From NCBI RefSeq assembly GCF_041886205.1, contig NZ_CP169029.1: a DNA stretch of 64,000 nt; one strand, 5' to 3'. Positions within the stretch are counted from its first letter, which is position 1. Each line of letters begins with the position of its first letter. Shown here piece by piece: positions 1-12,599 of the stretch. Position numbers and translations under genes: made by a program. The notes beneath the pieces are model-generated. The model saw nothing but the letters and a program-made list of their open reading frames with translations. It made no database searches and had not been told where the DNA came from. The DNA comes from Escherichia coli (lineage in GTDB: Bacteria; Pseudomonadota; Gammaproteobacteria; Enterobacterales; Enterobacteriaceae).

Positions 1-651
1 GCTCAAGATATCGGTAAACTGCATTCATCGAGGAAAGTCTCGCCAGATTGGTATTCCAAGTTACCAATCCCTTGGAACAAAACTGTTACTTGGATCGATA
101 GTTCGAGCCCTAATGAAGCAGGTGCAGAAGAACATAAGGGTAATGGTCGTTACTATAATCAACGAGAAGTCCGGCTACTGCTAGAGGCTTTGCAGTCATT
201 GTCGAGTGATGGCTGCATTGCACAGCTTGAGCAAACTATTACCACAGAACAGCCATATCCTATTGGTATAATCACAATGTATCGTCAGCAAAAAGAGGAA
301 ATTGACAATGCTATCAGTCGGGCTGAATGGGCTGCATCGTTACGTGGTTTGATCAAGATCGATACCGTTGATTCATATCAGGGCCATGAAAACAAGATAA
401 TTATCCTCAGTCTGGTTCGCGATAATCCCAACAAACTACAAGGTTTCCTGCGCGACGCGCCGCGAATAAACGTTGCTATTTCGCGAGCTCAAGAAAGGTT
501 ATTGATTCTGGGAGCAAGGCGTATGTGGTCAAAGACCAATAATGATTCAGCACTTGGAAACGTTCATGAATTTATTAGTAAACAGGTTGCAGTAGATGAA
601 CCCAACTACCAAATCCTGTGTGGTCAAAGTCTGCTTGGAGATAACAACTAA
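1..651 (+). CDS. SF1 (Upf1/DNA2-like) helicase, C-terminal part only; 5' end lies upstream of the window
   Basis: Frame 1 is open from position 1 to the stop at 649-651. Translation carries helicase C-terminal motifs (DTVDSYQGHE, INVAISRAQERLLILG) resembling the C-terminal helicase core. Confidence 0.6.
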   Translation, partial: AQDIGKLHSSRKVSPDWYSKLPIPWNKTVTWIDSSSPNEAGAEEHKGNGRYYNQREVRLLLEALQSLSSDGCIAQLEQTITTEQPYPIGIITMYRQQKEEIDNAISRAEWAASLRGLIKIDTVDSYQGHENKIIILSLVRDNPNKLQGFLRDAPRINVAISRAQERLLILGARRMWSKTNNDSALGNVHEFISKQVAVDEPNYQILCGQSLLGDNN

Positions 652-2198
652 TGTCAGAACCACGTCTGGGTAATCTGATTACCGTTTTACTACCTGCGCG
701 TAGTTACAAGATCAACTGCGCTTTGACCACTGAAAAACTGATGCCTGGAATTGAACAGTTTGCATGTCGCTTGCTGCTGATTTTTGATCAACTCTATCCC
801 AGCGAGTTACAGAATTACTTTGGTCTAACTGATCGTGAGCGAGAGGTATTGCTTGATGGGTTGCTGGCTAACAGACTGATCAACATTAATCCTGATGGGC
901 ATATTGAGGCTAGCTCATTCCTACGTAAGCATGCAGCTAATAATGGTGGGAAGCCAAGTTTAGTTAAATATCAAGAATGTACGGAGGAAGTTGCATTCGA
1001 TCTACTAACTCTTTCGATATGTAAACCGCAACCAAATCGTCGTTTTACTTCTGGACTGCCAGAGCTATTGCCGCGGCATCAGATCGGGGGAGATGCTGCT
1101 GCGGTAACAGAGGCTTTTAGTTCCCAGTTTAGGCACCATCTTTTGCTCAGCCGCAACAGCGAGTATGAGCGTCAACGGACTAAATTATATAAGATAATGG
1201 GCTGTAGTTCGCATGAGATGGTGCAGCTCCCAATAGAGATAGAGGTTAGCTACGGTGTTTCTGCTGGGAGCATTGAGCCGCAGAAATTTACTCGTTCCTA
1301 TGAATATTTAGGTAACACCCGGCTGCCGCTTTCAAACGAGCTGGAAGCTCATATCGCAGATTTTTTGGGAGAACATAAACTAGATGAATTCGGTATCGAC
1401 TGTGAAGATTTCTGTAAACTAGCAAATGATAAAGTGTTGTTACAATTTGCTAATGGTTATAAGTTCAACTATTCCGGCTGGATAGAGGCTCGTGAACAAC
1501 GTAAAACTGGCTACGGTACTTCATTGACTACCGGCATGTTAGGGGCTGTTTATTTGCCGCACAATTCTAAGCTGTTCATTAGTATGTTGCATAATGCATT
1601 ACGTGATTATATAGGTAAAACAGCTCCAAAAGCGCTGTGGTATAGCAGTAAAGTACCACTGTGGGGAGCTAATGGTAGTCAACTTTCGCGTTTTACTCGC
1701 GCTCTAGGCGATATACTTGGCAATTATGCCGATGATAAGATTGCTCGCATTTCGCTTTTACACTCAAGTGCAGATGAAGGTGAAAAACGTCAAGAGCGTA
1801 AGCGGCACTTAGGTCGTTTTCCTACCGGTATTGGCCTTACTTCAGAGGCTAAATTTGATCGTTTGGAGATCCTCTTAATTCCTGATGTGATTGCTTTGGT
1901 GCAATACCACGGTCAACCTAATTCTGATAGTGCATTAACCCTGCCGATTGGTTATATAACTGTTGAGCCAGAGCGTTTAGAATTACTTAAAAAACTAATG
2001 ATTAAGCGAACTGAAGGGGCTGTTGCAACCATTACTTGGTCTGAATCAAAATTTGAAAATTTAGCTTCGCTATTACCTGTTGAGTTTCTGATTAAACTGA
2101 ATAAGAAAAGCGGTGAAGATGTGGATGCTGCAATAAAAAAAATGCAGATCTATAACCGTGCTGAAACCGCACGGGCAATTTTATCGCTACGCAAGTAG
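651..2198 (+). CDS. Hypothetical 515-aa protein, translationally coupled to the upstream helicase
   Basis: ATG at 651 overlaps the helicase stop (TAATG); GGAG 13 nt upstream. Long uninterrupted ORF with no catalytic motif I can recognise. Confidence 0.6.
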   Translation: MSEPRLGNLITVLLPARSYKINCALTTEKLMPGIEQFACRLLLIFDQLYPSELQNYFGLTDREREVLLDGLLANRLININPDGHIEASSFLRKHAANNGGKPSLVKYQECTEEVAFDLLTLSICKPQPNRRFTSGLPELLPRHQIGGDAAAVTEAFSSQFRHHLLLSRNSEYERQRTKLYKIMGCSSHEMVQLPIEIEVSYGVSAGSIEPQKFTRSYEYLGNTRLPLSNELEAHIADFLGEHKLDEFGIDCEDFCKLANDKVLLQFANGYKFNYSGWIEAREQRKTGYGTSLTTGMLGAVYLPHNSKLFISMLHNALRDYIGKTAPKALWYSSKVPLWGANGSQLSRFTRALGDILGNYADDKIARISLLHSSADEGEKRQERKRHLGRFPTGIGLTSEAKFDRLEILLIPDVIALVQYHGQPNSDSALTLPIGYITVEPERLELLKKLMIKRTEGAVATITWSESKFENLASLLPVEFLIKLNKKSGEDVDAAIKKMQIYNRAETARAILSLRK

Positions 2199-2412: not shown

Positions 2413-2739
2413 ATGACTAAAAATACACGTTTTTCCCCCGAAGTCCGTCAACGGGCAGTTCGTATGGTTCTGGAAAGTCAGGGCGAATATGACTCACAAT
2501 GGACAGCAATTTGTTCTATTGCCCCTAAGATTGGCTGTACACCGGAGACTCTGCACGTCTGGGTACTCCAGCATGAGCAGGATATTGGGGGCGGTGATGG
2601 TGGTTTCACCACCACTGAACGTCAGCGTCTGAAAGAGCTGGAACGTGAAAATCGTGAACTGAGCCGCAGTAACGATATCCTTCGCCAGGCTTCCACTTAT
2701 TTTGCGAAGGCGGAGTTCGACCGCCCCTGGAAAAAATAA
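2413..2739 (+). CDS. IS3-family transposase OrfA (IS629 OrfA-like, 108 aa)
   Basis: Translation MTKNTRFSPEVRQRAVRMVLESQGEYDSQW...LKELERENRELSRSNDILRQAS matches IS629/IS1203 OrfA as I recall it. Confidence 0.75.
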   Translation: MTKNTRFSPEVRQRAVRMVLESQGEYDSQWTAICSIAPKIGCTPETLHVWVLQHEQDIGGGDGGFTTTERQRLKELERENRELSRSNDILRQASTYFAKAEFDRPWKK

Positions 2740-3118
2740 TGCCACTGCTGGATAAGTCGCGTGAGCAGTACGGGATCGGACCGGTATGCAGTGAACTGCA
2801 TATTGCCCCGTCAACGTATTACCACTGTCAGCAACAGCGACATCATCCTGATAAACGCAATGCCCGTGCGCAGCGTGATGACTGGCTGAAGAAAAAGATA
2901 CCGTGCGTATACGATGTGCGTAAAGTCTGGCGTCAGTTGTTTCGGGAAGGTATCAGAGTGGCCAGATGCACTGTGGCACGTCTCATGGCGGTTATGGGGC
3001 TTGTCGGTGTTCTCTGGGGTAAAAGGTCCGCACTACCGTCAGCCGGAAAGCCGTTGCCGTAGACGACCGCGTAAACCGCCAGTTCGGGGCAAAGTCGTGG
3101 GTGGCTGATTTTACTTAC
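2739..3118 (+). pseudogene. IS3-family transposase OrfB, truncated and frameshifted
   Basis: Begins MPLLDKSREQYGIGPVCSELHIAPSTYYHCQQQRHHPDK like IS629 OrfB, but is short of a few residues versus the recalled sequence, stops after 107 aa, and continues in another frame (RQFGAKSWVADFTY) before homology ends. Confidence 0.6.
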
Positions 3119-3900: not shown

Positions 3901-4227
3901 CTGGGAGCTTATAGATTGTGTGCAAAACTTTTGATAGCAGGAGGTTACAACAGTATTGATGAAAAAGATCATTCAAATCGATTTATATATTTTGTTAATG
4001 TTATCTGTTTTCAATCTAATAACCACGAATATAGCTAATTATAGGATGATTACTAGTTTTGCTACCCTATCAACCAAACGTTCACCGGACATTAGAAAAC
4101 ATGGAAATTTCTTGTTTTTAAATGCTTTTTACACCAATAGAAAAATTTACATTCCAAAATCATTAGTCTTTGCGTAATCAAAAGATGTAATGGTTTTTTT
4201 CCTTACTACTTCTAGATAATCCGCCCA

Positions 4228-4345
4228 CTACAGCAACATCAACTTACGCTCATCTAAATGCTCCGCCTTATGGATATAAGCTACCCGCACTGAATTACAT
4301 TCCATGCGGCTCATCAGACGTCCAGTTGCTTTACTGTCTTCAGGG
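4228..4345 (-). pseudogene. P4-type integrase 3'-terminal fragment (remnant of an older island)
   Basis: Minus-strand translation ...ATGRLMSRMECNSVRVAYIHKAEHLDERKLMLL* aligns with the C-terminus of the intact integrase at 11064..12326 (...AVERQMSHQERNGVRAAYIHKAEHLEERRLMLQ...). No upstream catalytic region. Confidence 0.5.
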
Positions 4346-4584
4346 GGATGCTCTTGTAATCCCAACCTCTCGTGCTTTCTGAGCATAACACATCCATGTT
4401 GCTGCGATTATCTCTTAAACCCGTCCTTACCATTTTTATTGATACGATAAGGAACCTTCATCATACATGATCGATTTTGTCGATCGATTCGATCGAATTT
4501 TCTCTTTTTACCCTGTCTTTTACATGGTTTTAAAATAAGCACCCCATTTATTGTTCGGGGAAAGTGATAGCAGAGGTAACTGAA

Positions 4585-5313
4585 ATGAAAAAGATTATTG
4601 CGGTTTCAGCACTTGCTGTGGCAGGCATGTTTTCAGCCCAGACCCTGGCTGATGAGAGCAAAACAGGCTTTTATATGACCGGTAAGGCGGGAACTTCCGT
4701 TTTATCTCTTTCCAACCAGCGTTTTGTCGAAGGTGAAGGAGAGTGGGCGGACAGATACAAAGGTGACGATGACCATGATACGGTATTCAGTGGCGGTATT
4801 GCGGCCGGTTATGATTTTTATCCGCAGTTCAGTATTCCGGTTCGTACAGAACTGGAGTTTTACGCTCGTGGAAATGCTGACACGAAATATAATCTTTATA
4901 AAGACGACTGGTCGCGTGGTGACCTGAAGAACGAGGTGTCAGTCAACACTCTGATGCTGAATGCGTACTATGACTTCCGGAATGACAGCTCATTCACACC
5001 ATGGGTATCTGCAGGGATTGGCTACGCCAGAATTCACCAGAAAACAACCGGTATCAGTACCTGGGATTACGGGTATGGATACAGTGGTCGTGAATCGTTG
5101 TCACGTTCAGGCTCTGCTGACAACTTCGCATGGAGCCTTGGCGCGGGTGTCCGCTATGACGTCACCCCGGATATCGCTCTGGACCTCAGCTATCGCTATC
5201 TTGATGCGGGTGACAGCAGTGTGAGTTACAAGGGCGAGTGGGGCGATAAATATAAATCAGAGGTTGATGTTAAAAGTCATGACATCCTGCTTGGTGTGAC
5301 TTATAACTTCTGA
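4585..5313 (+). CDS. Outer-membrane beta-barrel protein (OmpA-like/opacity-type family), 242 aa
   Basis: Signal peptide MKKIIAVSALAVAGMFSAQTLA, alternating aromatic/hydrophilic beta-strand pattern, C-terminal ...LLGVTYNF ending in Phe. The ORF-track start at 4564 is probably an upstream extension. Confidence 0.7.
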   Translation: MKKIIAVSALAVAGMFSAQTLADESKTGFYMTGKAGTSVLSLSNQRFVEGEGEWADRYKGDDDHDTVFSGGIAAGYDFYPQFSIPVRTELEFYARGNADTKYNLYKDDWSRGDLKNEVSVNTLMLNAYYDFRNDSSFTPWVSAGIGYARIHQKTTGISTWDYGYGYSGRESLSRSGSADNFAWSLGAGVRYDVTPDIALDLSYRYLDAGDSSVSYKGEWGDKYKSEVDVKSHDILLGVTYNF

Positions 5314-5390
5314 CGACACTGCTTCTGAATGATAATTGCGCATATTTCTGCAATTAAGATAATTACGTATTTCTGTAATTAAAAAGGAAC

Positions 5391-5435
5391 ACCCTGCAGT
5401 AATATTATACTGCAGGGTTGTCTGTTATCTGCTTT
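5391..5435 (+). terminator. Putative rho-independent terminator after the outer-membrane protein gene
   Basis: Perfect 11-bp inverted repeat accctgcagta/tactgcagggt followed by a T-rich tract. Confidence 0.4.
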
Positions 5436-5488
5436 ACAGGATATTTCTGATTTTTATTATCTTATTCTCTTTATATTAAGATATTTCG

Positions 5489-6988
5489 ATGAGTATCATA
5501 AAACTATTTTTTCCGGACAATACATCCCGAATTTTATTGTTTTTATTCTTTTTTGTTGTTTCTGTCATAACCACAATTGCATGCGGATACACTGAGAAGA
5601 ATACCACCGGGAATGTGTTGCTGCTGTTCTTTCTTCTGCTTCTTGCACACAGAAATACCCTCACATCCATTACAGCGCTGTTATTTCTGTTCTGTTGTGC
5701 ACTGTATGCGCCTGCCGGTATGACGTACGGTAAAATCAACAACAGTTTTATTGTCGCGTTGTTGCAGACCACGGCTGATGAGGCAGCGGAGTTTACCGGG
5801 ATGATTCCTGTTTATCATTTTCTGGTCAGTGCCGCGATTCTGGTATTCATGGTGATTTTCTGGCGAACACACCACCGCGGTCACCGTAACTGGCTGGCAC
5901 TGCTGCTATTCGTATTATGCTCTGTAAACAGCTGGCCGTTGCGGATGGTTAAAGGAACCGTTGTGGGGACAACTGACACATTGCGTGAAATGCAGCGTTA
6001 TAAACAACTGAGTCAGCACGGGGCTGACAGCTGGAAAATCCTGCCGGGTGTACCGTTGTATGACACGATTGTTATTGTTACTGGTGAGAGTGTGCGCAGG
6101 GATTATATGTCGGTATATGGCTATCCCGTGCCAACCACACCGTGGCTGAATACTGCTCCCGGTTTATTTATTGACGGCTATACATCGGCAGCAGCCAGTA
6201 CCGTACCTTCCCTGAGCCGGACACTGATTTATGACTATGAGCAGAACCCTGATTCCGGCAACAACGTGGTGGCGCTGGCAGCAAAATCAGGATACAGCAC
6301 ATGGTGGATATCCAATCAGGGAAAACTGGGAGAGCATGACACACGCATCTCTGTTATTGCTTCTGATGCGGAGCATACCGTTTTCCTCAAGAAAGGCAGC
6401 TTCGCTTCCCGTAAAACGGATGATATGTTGTTGTTACAGGAAACAGAACGTGCGCTGGCGGATACATCCTCTCCGAAGGTGATTTTCCTGCACATGATTG
6501 GCTCTCATCCGAATCCGTGTGACCGACTTAACTCCTGGCCGAATCATTACCTGGAGCAGTATCCCCGAAAGATTGCCTGTTACCTCGCCAGCATCAGTAA
6601 ACTGGATAACTTTCTCGGTCAGCTTGATGGTATCCTTCGCCGGCATTCCCGTCATTTCGCCATGCTTTACTTTTCTGACCATGGACTGTCGGTCAGCGAC
6701 AGCGCTAATCCTGTTCATCATGATGGTCATGTGCAGGGAGGCTACAGCGTTCCCCTGATTATTACCGCCAGTGACATCACGTCTCATCAGTCCGTCAGCA
6801 GAAAAATCAGTGCCCGTCATTTCGCAGGTATTTTTCAGTGGCTGACCGGCATTCGTACTGAAAATATACCGCCATTCAATCCGCTGACAGACGAAGATAA
6901 TGAACCCGTTATGGTTTTTAACGGGGAGAGGAATGTACCGGCAGACAGTCTGAAACCGCAGCCTCTGATTCTTCCGGACAGAAGATAA
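5489..6988 (+). CDS. Sulfatase-family phosphoethanolamine transferase-like inner-membrane protein (EptA/YhbX-like), 499 aa
   Basis: N-terminal multi-span hydrophobic region followed by a soluble domain with sulfatase-like signatures (IVTGESVRRDY, HMIGSHPNPCDRL). Exact start codon uncertain. Confidence 0.65.
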   Translation: MSIIKLFFPDNTSRILLFLFFFVVSVITTIACGYTEKNTTGNVLLLFFLLLLAHRNTLTSITALLFLFCCALYAPAGMTYGKINNSFIVALLQTTADEAAEFTGMIPVYHFLVSAAILVFMVIFWRTHHRGHRNWLALLLFVLCSVNSWPLRMVKGTVVGTTDTLREMQRYKQLSQHGADSWKILPGVPLYDTIVIVTGESVRRDYMSVYGYPVPTTPWLNTAPGLFIDGYTSAAASTVPSLSRTLIYDYEQNPDSGNNVVALAAKSGYSTWWISNQGKLGEHDTRISVIASDAEHTVFLKKGSFASRKTDDMLLLQETERALADTSSPKVIFLHMIGSHPNPCDRLNSWPNHYLEQYPRKIACYLASISKLDNFLGQLDGILRRHSRHFAMLYFSDHGLSVSDSANPVHHDGHVQGGYSVPLIITASDITSHQSVSRKISARHFAGIFQWLTGIRTENIPPFNPLTDEDNEPVMVFNGERNVPADSLKPQPLILPDRR

Positions 6989-7096
6989 TCATGTCGGTAT
7001 GAATGTTATAATTAAGGACCGTGCAATAATAGCCATTCCATTCAGCCATCTTACGCTCGAAAACAATCGATAAGATGGCTACTCACCATTCCTGCT

Positions 7097-10000
7097 CTAA
7101 ACCTGACGCCTCTCAAGACTATTATAAATAGCCTCAATCTCACCCTTCAGGTTATCACCGCAATAAACCATTGAGGTATCGTATCGTTCATATCGCGCTT
7201 CCCGTGTCGCACTAAACCAGTTGAACGATCCCACGCACAGCAAACCATCATCACCAATAACAATTTTGCTATGAACACGGTTTACCAGCTTTGTAGCAAT
7301 ACCCAGCGCATTCAGTTTCTCCAGCGCCGCTTTAAAGTTTTGCTGCTTCTCTTTTCGCTTCTCAAAATCATTATGTTCAGTGTTGTAGCTTCTGTCAGTG
7401 ACTATCGTGACGTTAATTCCACGTGAACACGCCGCAATCATGGAATCAAGAAAACCTGTTTGCTCCAGCCTTTGCCAGGTCAGCCATGGAGAAACTATCG
7501 TGATGTGTTTACTGGTATTTTCAAATGTCTGATTCAGGAAATTATCATGTTGCTCCACACCATGAAGTGTGTAGATTTTGGTCCCGGAGGTTTTTAAATC
7601 CTTACGCTCTTTATAATCAAAAGAGAGCGCATTCTTCTCTGACTCAAAGAGGTATTTTGCCAGTAATCCCCGTGGAGATGAGGCTGGCTGGACCTCAAAC
7701 AGGTCCATATCGCCGAAGACCAGAAAACTGTCCTTCGCACGGGAGACTGCAACATTCAGCATGCTGTTATCGCTATCAATAAACCCGCCGTCTTCATGTT
7801 TTGAATAGACTGGCGAGAATATCACAATCGCTCTTTCCGCTCCCTGAAGAGAGTGCACGGTGCCCACTGTGAGCGACTTTTCATTCGAGCCTGTACTGAT
7901 ACCTTGTTTGCCCAGCGCCTGTTTGATAGTGGATACCTGAGCGCTAAAAGGCGTCACGATACCGACAACTTCATGAAGCGATTTACCGTAATGCGCTTCA
8001 ATATTTTGTTGGTTCTCTGCCAACCAGACCGCTATCGTTTCAGCCTCAAGCAAATTATATCGACTTCCACTACTTGCCAGCTCTCCTTTACCATCAATAT
8101 GGAGATACCCCATTGCGGGCATTAAATTGCTCTCTTCACGCCCTCTTTTAGGCAACAACTTACCGTGATAGCAGAGCGTATTACAGTATCCAATAATATT
8201 GTCGTAGCACCGGCGGTGTTCATATAGGGACATACCACGAGCCAGTTCGGGATCATATTGATAGCGCGAAGCAAACTGCGCTATTTTCATAACGCTGCCA
8301 GATGCGGCACTTTTACCAAGGTCTGCGATTGCCGTATATTTCTCGGTAATCTCTTCTTGCGTACTGCCAGACAGAATTTTTTCCGCCAGCATGTTACCGA
8401 CATCAATCGCAGGAGCAATACTCCATATTGGCGGGAGCTGCTCCGTATCGCCAATCACTAATGCCTTCTTAGCTAATGCAAACGAGGCAGCAGCCACTTC
8501 AGGAAGCACCTGCCCGGCTTCATCGACAATGAGTAAATCGGCAAAATCATACAAATAACTTTTCTCGAATTTACGCTGTCCTTTGTGCTCACTTATCTGC
8601 ATATTGCCGGGCAGCATATAGCATGTCATCACCACACATGGAGTGAGTTTCATTCGACGTTGCCAACGGGCAGTTACCCCTTTAGCGCCTTTTTTCTTCT
8701 TCTCTTCCTGCAGATCATCAATGCTGGCCATATCCATCAGCCAACGACCTTCCCAGTAGTGAGTCGTCAGTAAAAATGCAGGGAAGCGAATCTGCGTATC
8801 AGCCAGTTCATCGGCCTGTGAGAAGCTCAGTTCCTCGTCGCCCTCATACCCTAAATTAAGAGCCAGTCTCTGCCACTCCTGAACCGCCTGCTGTTCTTTA
8901 AGAATGATTTCATGGGCGGAATCAATCTGCTGCCGGTATGTTGTTTGCTCGCGCTCAGCGGAATTGAGCAGCCCATCAATATTACGTTCGATAGTTTCAG
9001 GATCAGACCACTGATTTCCTGCAATCAGCGCACCTAATTTATCTTCGAGAAACAGCTGTATTTGGTACTGTCGCTTACTGCGAACCACCGGGAGCCAGGA
9101 AAATAATGAATAGATCAGTGATTCACCGGCGCGATATTTTTTCCATTCCGTTTTAGCACTTTTCAGTAGAGTGATTTTTTGTTCTTGTCCGGAAAGTAAT
9201 TTATTTAAATTATCGAGATATTGCTCAATGTCGTTAGCAATAAGCTCACGCGCAGCCCGTACCTGGCTTAACGTTTGCCATGTTGCGTTCAGTCTTATCA
9301 GTTGCTCGGATTTTGCTGCCAACTGACCATGCAGGAGTTCAATGACCTTTTCAGGGGATGAACAATCTTTTTCAGGAAAGGCTGCCTTAGCCTTCTCCAG
9401 ATAAAACAGCAGTGCATCCTCTACATACTCTTTTGACTCAACCTGGTTGAAGAAATCTTCAGTTTGATATTTTTTGGCTGCCTCAGCTTTACGAGTGCTT
9501 GAGGGAAAATAAGCGCCGAAGCTTTTCAGCTCAGGTAACCATCGTCCGGCCATTGCACCAGTGCCCTGTGAAAAATCTTTCCCGAACGCTTCGATAATGT
9601 TCGTTACAGCCTGGTTGTTCGTTGAAGTCGCGATAATTACCGGAGGCTCAGATTTTTCGAGAGCCGCTCTGGCCCACTGCGTGGCGATGATAGAAAGCAC
9701 CAGCGTGGTTTTTCCGGTTCCCGGAGGTCCATTAACAGCAAGGATATCGCCATGTCTTGCATCCAGAAAATGGCTTAAGGCATCGCGCTGAGCCTTTGCC
9801 AGCGGAAACTTATCTCCGGAGTGTCCAAGCCTGTCGCTGAATTTTGCGCCTGGGGCCAGCAAAGACTCTGCAGCATGAACCTCTCGCGAGGCGAAGCGAT
9901 TGAAGAGCGGCACAACCTTCTTGCAAACAAGCAGGTGATCATAAAGAGAAAGGATATGGAAACAGGCACCGCCAGATTGCGCCGTTTTAACAATATAACC

Positions 10001-10612
10001 GTGCTCAGCGAGTTCATATTGCTCAGGATTTTTAATCCAGTCGCCGGCAACGTTCTTCAGCAGCCTCTCTGAATCATCCAGATATTGACGCCACTCCTGC
10101 TGCAAGGCTGCATATCGTGCTTCCCGTTCTTCATCCGTTTCGGCAGTCTTATCAATGCCGTCATCAAAGTTGATAGAGAACGAGGTATGGATTGTCTTGT
10201 ATTTGTCATACTGCCCAATCTCACCAATCGAAAATGCTCCTTTTGGCAAAGGTTCAAGCAGGTCTCTGGGAATGGAGGTCGCTGGCGTCGGATATAAAAA
10301 ACCCTCACGGCTTAGCAAGGCTGGCGTCACTATCGGGGTAACAATATCAGGCGCGCCTGCGGAACGGTCCTTACCATGCTGCAGTAACCGGAAATAAACT
10401 TTTGGGCGCAAGATGACATCGACCGTTTCGACATCGTCTTTTTCTCCCTTAAAAAATTTACTGACAATCGCTTCGTCAAGACGTCCCGCCGCTATCCCAT
10501 GCCAGTGAGTGAAATTTTTGGCGTCTTTCCGTTCAAAACTGCCCTTTCCTGACTCAGCATCCGCAAGCGAGTTGCGCCAGTATGAGGTAAACCCTAAAGC
10601 ATTTTCATCCAT
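7097..10612 (-). CDS. SF1 helicase (Upf1/DNA2-like) fused to a C-terminal PLD-family (HKD) nuclease domain, 1171 aa; candidate single-gene antiphage defense protein
   Basis: Walker [15 protein letters not shown]; Walker B/motif [11 protein letters not shown]; [11 protein letters not shown]; C-terminal helicase motifs [14 protein letters not shown] and [16 protein letters not shown]; C-terminal [19 protein letters not shown] is an exact HxK(x)4D(x)6GSxN phospholipase-D motif. ATG at 10612..10610 with AGGA upstream. Confidence 0.75.
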
Positions 10613-12523: not shown

Positions 12524-12599
12524 TGGTGCCCGGACTCGGAATCGAACCAAGGACACGGGGATTTTCAATCCCCTGCTCTACCGACTGAGCTATCCGGGC
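12524..12599 (-). tRNA. pheV: tRNA-Phe (pheV locus by synteny with yqgA-speC)
   Basis: Reverse complement reads GCCCGGATAGCTCAGTCGGTAGAGCAGGGGATTGAAAATCCCCGTGTCCTTGGTTCGATTCCGAGTCCGGGCACCA, the E. coli tRNA-Phe sequence including CCA. Confidence 0.95.

Follow-up and report, generated by a model that had tools for sequence, protein, structure and literature searches.

Results

Genes at the locus

The 64,000-nucleotide stretch of Escherichia coli DNA analysed here, referred to as the window, carries two neighbouring genes on its plus strand that are separated by a spacer of 175 nt (5314-5488) with an A+T content of 70%. The two genes and the landmark of the island that holds them are as follows.

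4585-5313, plus strand: outer-membrane beta-barrel gene of the Hra/Hek/Tia/Hes adhesin family (Pfam OMP_b-brl, 1.4e-24)
5489-6988, plus strand: phosphoethanolamine transferase gene, 499 aa (Pfam Sulfatase, 1.4e-35, and EptA_B_N)
12524-12599, minus strand: tRNA-Phe, the site of the island that holds the spacer (pheV island)

An integrase gene adjoins the tRNA-Phe island site, and the speC-yqgA segment of the window matches a complete E. coli genome at 100% identity. The heat-resistant agglutinin family (Hra1/Hek, Tia, Hes) and the LAA/hes context have been described for pheV islands (PMC5539235). Homologues of the adhesin gene are named 'outer membrane protein' or 'tia' in RefSeq. Translation of the gene likely starts at the ATG at 4585, which is preceded by GAGG, in place of the GTG at 4564 given in the list of open reading frames, and the stop codon is the TGA at 5311-5313. 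The spacer is not a general 3' UTR of the Hra family. That candidate was ruled out by a plasmid paralogue, 66% identical to the adhesin, in which the downstream region is unrelated and the transferase gene is missing. Because this paralogue has neither spacer nor transferase, the spacer is specific to the two-gene module and not to the whole adhesin family.

Three GATC (Dam) sites fall within 26 bp upstream of the adhesin gene (4469-4494), at 4469, 4482 and 4491, which correspond to -116, -103 and -94 from the ATG. The cluster lies within the palindrome TCGATCGATTCGATCGA and directly upstream of a promoter-like TTTACC-18-TAAAAT (4507-4536). It is kept in most alleles of the adhesin upstream region and is missing from a second, unrelated upstream type. 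GATC clusters are known at the phase-variable pap and agn43 genes, and by analogy the cluster before the adhesin gene resembles these.

The transferase has CptA/EptA-like matches in NCBIfam, all of them below the cut-offs. The K-12 pseudogene yjgX aligns to 5802-6992 with 92% identity and is a 5'-truncated copy that comes without the spacer and without the adhesin gene. The transferase gene is the intact, full-length form of yjgX. On the other side of the transferase gene, a 1171-aa helicase and PLD protein (7097-10612, minus strand) gives a full-length PADLOC match (1684 bits) to MkoC, a component of Mokosh type II anti-phage defence. At the start of the window, the end of an MkoA-like helicase (190-651, plus strand, cut by the window edge) and an MkoB-like protein (651-2198, plus strand, 207 bits) suggest that a Mokosh type I system may also be present. 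Between these genes and the adhesin gene, two short open reading frames with transposase HTH domains (HTH_Tnp_1 and HTH_21; 2413-3062) look like the remnant of an IS3-family transposase.

Distribution of the two-gene module

The spacer was found in 1512 of 5426 complete E. coli genomes (about 28%), with a median of one copy per genome. Strains with the module include E. coli H8, whose spacer has 99.5% identity to that of the window, and NCTC86 (L011). In 16 of 17 E. coli genome loci that were fetched, the adhesin and transferase genes are adjacent and on the same strand; in the 17th (L021) the adhesin gene is replaced by IS1. The contexts of the pair vary and include the pheV island, a position downstream of papG-II and a position beside atoS. 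Another 120 loci came from metagenomes, which were scanned for the final 24 nt of the adhesin gene, an anchor that is unbiased as to the spacer. The spacer reaches the transferase ATG in 134 of 138 instances; three are broken by an inserted element and one stops at a contig end. In three metagenome loci (L046 among those listed) an inserted element sits directly after the -35 hexamer described below, downstream of the hairpin. Altogether, among L001-L020 and L022-L141 the two genes are adjacent in all intact homologous loci examined. A scan of species-representative genomes with the transferase protein returned four loci only and was uninformative on spacer conservation: two are E. coli-like contaminant contigs, and two are distant homologues (30-32% identity) without a neighbouring outer-membrane gene. 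The invariable pairing of adhesin and transferase is a more intriguing point than the spacer itself, and it points to a possible functional link, such as modification of the adhesin or nearby LPS. Our literature search found no paper linking an Hra-family adhesin gene to a YjgX-type transferase gene.

For comparison of the spacer itself, 132 loci with both flanks yielded 51 distinct spacer alleles, which are visibly mosaic, and nucleotide diversity was measured over 77 haplotypes.

Sequence elements of the spacer

From the adhesin stop codon toward the transferase start codon, the spacer contains the following elements.

5323-5382, plus strand: about 2.4 tandem copies of a 25-nt unit, phased on TTCTG as TTCTGnAAT(TAA)GATAATTrCG(c)ATAT
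5331-5357, plus strand: repeat unit 1, 27 nt, an AT-rich inverted repeat with arms TAATTGC (5333-5339) and GCAATTA (5350-5356) and a 10-nt loop
5358-5382, plus strand: repeat unit 2, 25 nt, an AT-rich inverted repeat with arms TAATTAC (5360-5366) and GTAATTA (5375-5381) and an 8-nt loop
5383-5390, plus strand: A-rich linker before the hairpin, AACAGA in most other alleles
5391-5418, plus strand: G+C-rich hairpin, stem of 11 perfectly paired bp, loop of 6 nt, which presumably serves the adhesin mRNA as intrinsic terminator or 3'-end stem-loop
5419-5432, plus strand: T-rich tail with a 7-nt tandem repeat, GTCTGTT (5420-5426) and ATCTGCT (5427-5433)
5433-5460, plus strand: sigma-70-like promoter candidate for the transferase gene, with -35 TTTACA (5433-5438), a 16-nt spacer and -10 TATTAT (5455-5460)

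Nucleotide diversity over the 77 haplotypes differs widely among these parts.

-10 hexamer: 0.027, the lowest in the spacer
Hairpin arms: 0.035 and 0.075
T-rich tail: 0.085
-35 hexamer: 0.108
Whole spacer: 0.128
Repeat-unit arms: 0.06-0.19
Repeat-unit loops: 0.12-0.18
Hairpin loop: 0.381

These values place the constraint on the hairpin stem and the promoter-like hexamers and not on the repeats.

Two adjacent palindromic units upstream of the hairpin

The sequences TATTTCTGCAATTAA (5343-5357) and TATTTCTGTAATTAA (5368-5382) are identical at 14 of 15 nt and start 25 nt apart, and a 15-mer direct repeat with at least 14 of 15 identities arose in 0.15% of 2000 dinucleotide-preserving shuffles of the spacer (P about 0.0015). 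The near-identical direct repeats claimed in an earlier note on this DNA are thus real and above chance; the spacing of about 20 bp given there is actually 11 nt between the 14-mers. The similarity reaches further left, where GATAATTGCGCAT at 5331 corresponds to GATAATTACGTAT at 5358 as a second repeat family, and therefore each repeat first noticed forms the right half of a longer unit, and the two units, of 27 and 25 nt, adjoin each other. A partial third copy of the unit starts at 5323 when the array is phased on TTCTG. Tandem Repeats Finder, in which the 25/27-nt array scored too low to be reported, returned a single 9-nt repeat inside the transferase gene. Compared with unit 1, unit 2 has both arms altered together, from G-C to A-T, and unit 1 forms an RNA stem-loop by folding prediction.

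The pattern GATAATTRC-N6..12-GYAATTAA was found in only two places in the 64-kb window, with 0.00 expected, and the repeat unit and the hairpin arm are each unique within the window. A dispersed repeat of the REP/BIME, ERIC or MITE kind was rejected, the median being one place per genome and the highest count four. An Rfam scan of 4000-7200 at E<=1 gave no match in the spacer; its sole match was a sub-threshold Mu-gpT-DE at 6963-6993.

In the window allele, a C-to-T change at 5330 (AACGAT to AATGAT) makes an ATG at 5329 that opens a frame of 17 codons across both units, with the stop codon TAA at 5380-5382. The frame is missing from the other 50 alleles, and a conserved small peptide starting at this ATG was ruled out by the ACG, GCG, AAG or TAA-type sequence that other alleles have at this place.

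The number of units varies. Of 132 loci, 37 have a single copy (13 of 51 alleles) and the others have two, and the single-copy alleles fall into no fewer than two classes by deletion junction (L030 type and L126). Unit 1 is missing from 12 of the 38 distinct 3' UTR alleles, and in all 12 of these single-copy alleles the 7-bp unit stem is fully pairable. Among the 26 two-copy 3' UTR alleles, seven keep both stems intact, 15 keep one and four are mismatched in both, so that at least one unit with an intact dyad is found in 34 of 38. In the commonest allele (L010 type) one unit copy is degenerate. This pattern looks like redundancy after duplication, and it hints at one stem-loop worth keeping, with few independent lineages behind it. 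The 3' half of unit 2, the TTCTGnAAnTAAA block, is near-invariant over the 38 3' UTR alleles, which hints at a sequence-specific role that a simple gene boundary leaves unaccounted for.

The earlier note had taken the repeats for regulator binding sites of the transferase gene. In an explicit form of this proposal, the two units would be tandem dyad-symmetric sites for a transcription factor or a nucleoid protein, through which the transferase promoter is controlled from upstream. Each unit is indeed an inverted repeat, the two stand side by side, and the presence of an intact dyad in 34 of 38 alleles is in favour. The A+T content of the spacer also fits, since high A+T is typical of H-NS-bound acquired DNA. 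However, the units lie 51-102 bp upstream of the -35 hexamer (unit 2 ends at 5382 and the hexamer begins at 5433), beyond a terminator-type hairpin and in the presumed adhesin 3' UTR. Their copy number is one or two, with one copy degenerate in the commonest allele. Conservation of both repeats in homologous loci, which had been offered as a check, did not hold in the 37 single-copy loci, and the diversity of the units is not under the spacer mean. The arms change together, from G-C to A-T, across copies and alleles, which indicates that pairing is kept and not a fixed recognition sequence. The best spacer matches to the consensus sequences of PhoP, PmrA, Fur, CRP, IHF, OmpR, Lrp, H-NS, RcsB and CpxR were no better than those in shuffles, and none of these ten falls on the repeat units. 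Being upstream of the hairpin, variable in copy number and free of a consensus match, the repeats are not supported as regulator sites for the transferase gene, and we regard such a role as quite improbable.

A conserved hairpin with an interrupted T tract

The arms of the hairpin, ACCCTGCAGTA (5391-5401) and TACTGCAGGGT (5408-5418), form six G-C pairs among their 11, and the hairpin lies on the coding strand 78 nt past the adhesin TGA. A perfect stem of at least 11 bp was seen in 0.05% of 2000 dinucleotide-preserving spacer shuffles (P about 0.0005). The perfect 11-bp stem that had been noticed just past the repeats is therefore confirmed, and it begins 8 nt after the second repeat. The folding energy is -18.5 kcal/mol in the window allele and ranges from -9.8 to -19.3 kcal/mol over the alleles, with a median of -16.6 kcal/mol. 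No allele lacks the hairpin. Diversity in its arms is 5-10 times below that in its loop, and 95.4% of its helix cells are paired. RNAalifold returned the hairpin with a short lower stem as the sole consensus structure and did not recover the unit stems. None of the stem pairs is altered on both sides, and several have G.U variants. In one allele (L041), the stem gains a compensating C-G pair through one added C on its left side and one added G on its right. In the L010 type, which at 19 of 132 loci is the commonest allele, the stem contains an A.C mismatch that a better T tract partly offsets.

The A-rich stretch directly before the terminator-type hairpin is conserved, and the AACAGA of most other alleles can pair with the tail TCTGTT to make the lower stem; the window allele lacks this pairing. 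In most alleles, the AACAGA before the hairpin has either copy of the 7-nt tail repeat as a possible partner, and one copy is lost in L001- and L010-type alleles. All alleles have five to seven T among the first ten nt of the tail. The window tail, TGTCTGTTAT, has six T in ten and passes a simple terminator scan, in which the hairpin is terminator-like in both orientations. Since the T tract is interrupted, termination may be partial, and some read-through is likely.

A possible stem-loop function for the adhesin 3' UTR

The stems of the repeat units raise the question of whether the 3' UTR is itself a functional RNA. Under this proposal the adhesin 3' UTR (about 5314-5432) would either give rise to a small RNA or bind a protein as a 3' element, which we consider doubtful at best. 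Its details, in which the AT-rich stem-loops expose a conserved loop rich in pyrimidines (UCUUCUG / UUUCUG) and the G+C-rich hairpin is the terminator, are given equally little credence. Four lines of evidence speak for it. The 3' UTR folds better than shuffles in eight of eight alleles tried, with z from -3.7 to -5.5. The unit stems stay paired through the G-C to A-U change, and G.U forms are frequent. Both the TTCTGnAAnTAAA block and the A-rich stretch before the terminator are conserved, and every single-copy allele has an intact stem.

In alignment A1 the named structure pairs 94.3% of cells, compared with 25-51% when the partners are slid, and variation is so low that column shuffles still reach 93.0%. 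One column pair covaries in each unit stem, and as the units are paralogous these events are not independent. For unit 1 the pair is AU in 14 alleles, GU in seven and GC in three; for unit 2 (columns 55-67) it is AU in 16, GC in 13 and other in nine. The covariation score is 0.104 as compared with 0.094 in shuffles and was matched by three of 500 shuffles, again with paralogous units that are not independent. A.C mismatches are about as common as G.U pairs in the unit stems, so the pattern fits an RNA stem and a DNA palindrome alike. That the spacer has no Rfam match in the scan described above and that RNAalifold passes over the unit stems also weigh against a functional RNA.

A further version is that at least one stem-loop with a UCUUCUG loop by the terminator acts as a regulatory RNA or a protein-binding switch that sets read-through into the transferase gene. 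This is a long shot. If true, it would couple expression of the Hra-family adhesin to that of a dedicated phosphoethanolamine transferase.

A promoter candidate before the transferase gene

Promoter prediction placed the best sigma-70-like site of the spacer between the hairpin and the transferase ATG. With 10 of 12 consensus matches, TTTACA-16-TATTAT was the best site in a 2.9-kb scan (4300-7200), in which six promoter-like sites were found and 4.7 were expected by chance. A site of this kind (TTTACA or TTCACA, a spacer of 15-18 nt, TATTAT or TATTCT) is top-scoring at the homologous position in 47 of 51 alleles and 124 of 132 loci. The other four alleles have TTTATA..TATTGT at the position and a consensus TATAAT further downstream. 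Nearby deletions of 10, 8 and 1 bp and an insertion of 2 bp leave the site in place. In L021 (1440-1590), an IS1 interrupts the right hairpin arm; this locus no longer has the adhesin gene but retains an intact transferase gene, preceded by 83 bp of native sequence.

These observations bear on the alternative that the two genes form a single operon. The hairpin would then be an intercistronic attenuator and mRNA stabiliser that leaves much adhesin mRNA and little transferase mRNA, and the hexamers would be incidental to AT-rich sequence. The genes are on the same strand and adjacent in all intact homologous loci examined, in several island contexts, and the T tract behind the hairpin is interrupted, both of which would fit an operon. 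Neither a Shine-Dalgarno sequence nor strong signals of independent expression are visible before the transferase ATG, and the number of promoter-like sites in the 2.9-kb scan is close to the chance value. The Shine-Dalgarno sequence is missing in every spacer allele, which is unusual if the gene is independently expressed and counts against its having its own promoter. Against the operon, no part of the spacer varies less than the -10 hexamer, and the -35/-10 geometry outlives deletions of 8 and 10 bp and an insertion of 2 bp, which is hard to understand if the hexamers are incidental. The intact transferase gene of L021, with only 83 bp of native upstream sequence behind IS1, also argues against it. 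As partial read-through is likely, the operon and a boundary between two transcription units differ mainly on the reality of the internal promoter. We consider the operon unlikely. The proposal of the earlier note that the hairpin ends the outer-membrane gene, so that the two genes would be transcribed separately, fits the comparative evidence from arm and loop diversity, the T-rich tail and the kept promoter-like site.

Discussion

The spacer is probably an ordinary gene boundary, with a factor-independent terminator for the adhesin gene, a promoter of the transferase gene's own and repeats that are a duplicated small palindrome in the 3' UTR. It would thus separate two transcription units in a mobile two-gene module, in which an Hra-family adhesin gene is followed by a YjgX-type transferase gene. 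Adhesin transcription would pass through a 3' UTR of roughly 105 nt and mostly end at the hairpin (5391-5418) and its T-rich tail, which together would act as the factor-independent terminator. The transferase gene would be started from its own sigma-70 promoter, TTTACA-16-TATTAT (5433-5460). We infer termination, promoter activity and any role of a stem-loop from the sequences and their variation; in the literature on hra1, hek, hes and yjgX we found no transcript mapping or regulation data for the spacer.

The repeats find a place at such a boundary as two tandem copies of an AT-rich palindromic unit, which would have arisen by a slippage-type duplication and would not constitute a two-site operator. 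At most one copy may be needed, perhaps as an RNA stem-loop that defines or protects the 3' end of the mRNA. The sequence features, the conservation pattern and the variation in unit copy number were observed directly.

The kinds of element in the spacer are very well known; this instance of them is undescribed. Like the intrinsic (Rho-independent) terminators of enterobacteria, it has a G+C-rich stem-loop of 10-11 bp on the coding strand, 78 nt past the stop codon, which is A-rich before and T-rich after, and among alleles the stem is conserved while the loop varies freely. It differs from them in that the T tract is interrupted (five to seven T in ten) with no clean run, and in that the commonest allele is mismatched in the stem. 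Intercistronic stem-loops set differential expression within operons, for example in the papB-papA and malE-malF regions. The spacer shares with these a stable hairpin between same-strand, co-travelling genes of which the first encodes an abundant surface protein, whereas the conserved -35/-10 pair after its hairpin points to a separate start of the second gene. Unlike a REP element, the hairpin region has one copy per genome.

Two further comparisons concern the sequence upstream of the hairpin. CpxQ, SroC and MicL are 3' UTR-derived small RNAs, and as with these, conserved sequence and small stem-loops lie between the stop codon and the terminator of the parent gene. In contrast with them, the spacer is without an Rfam family and its stem-loop copy number is variable. 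Tandem dyad-symmetric operators likewise consist of two adjacent and similar inverted repeats. In the spacer, however, the units lie more than 50 bp before the promoter candidate, with a terminator-type hairpin in between, their copy number is variable, their half-sites change in step, and they have no match among the ten tested consensus sequences.

A probable transcription-unit boundary is hereby placed inside a module that about 28% of complete E. coli genomes contain, in many cases within virulence islands. Its position helps in the design of non-polar hes, hek or tia deletions and in the reading of expression data. The unit that occurs in one or two copies and the mosaic alleles are handy markers of recombination inside the adhesin-transferase module.

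A minor observation concerns the transferase start region. The promoter spacer contains TTTCTGAT (5444-5451), which in most alleles is complementary to ATCAGAAA at transferase codons 3-5 (5495-5502), where the window allele has ATCATAAA. Speculatively, this pairing could mask the start region, in read-through transcripts only.
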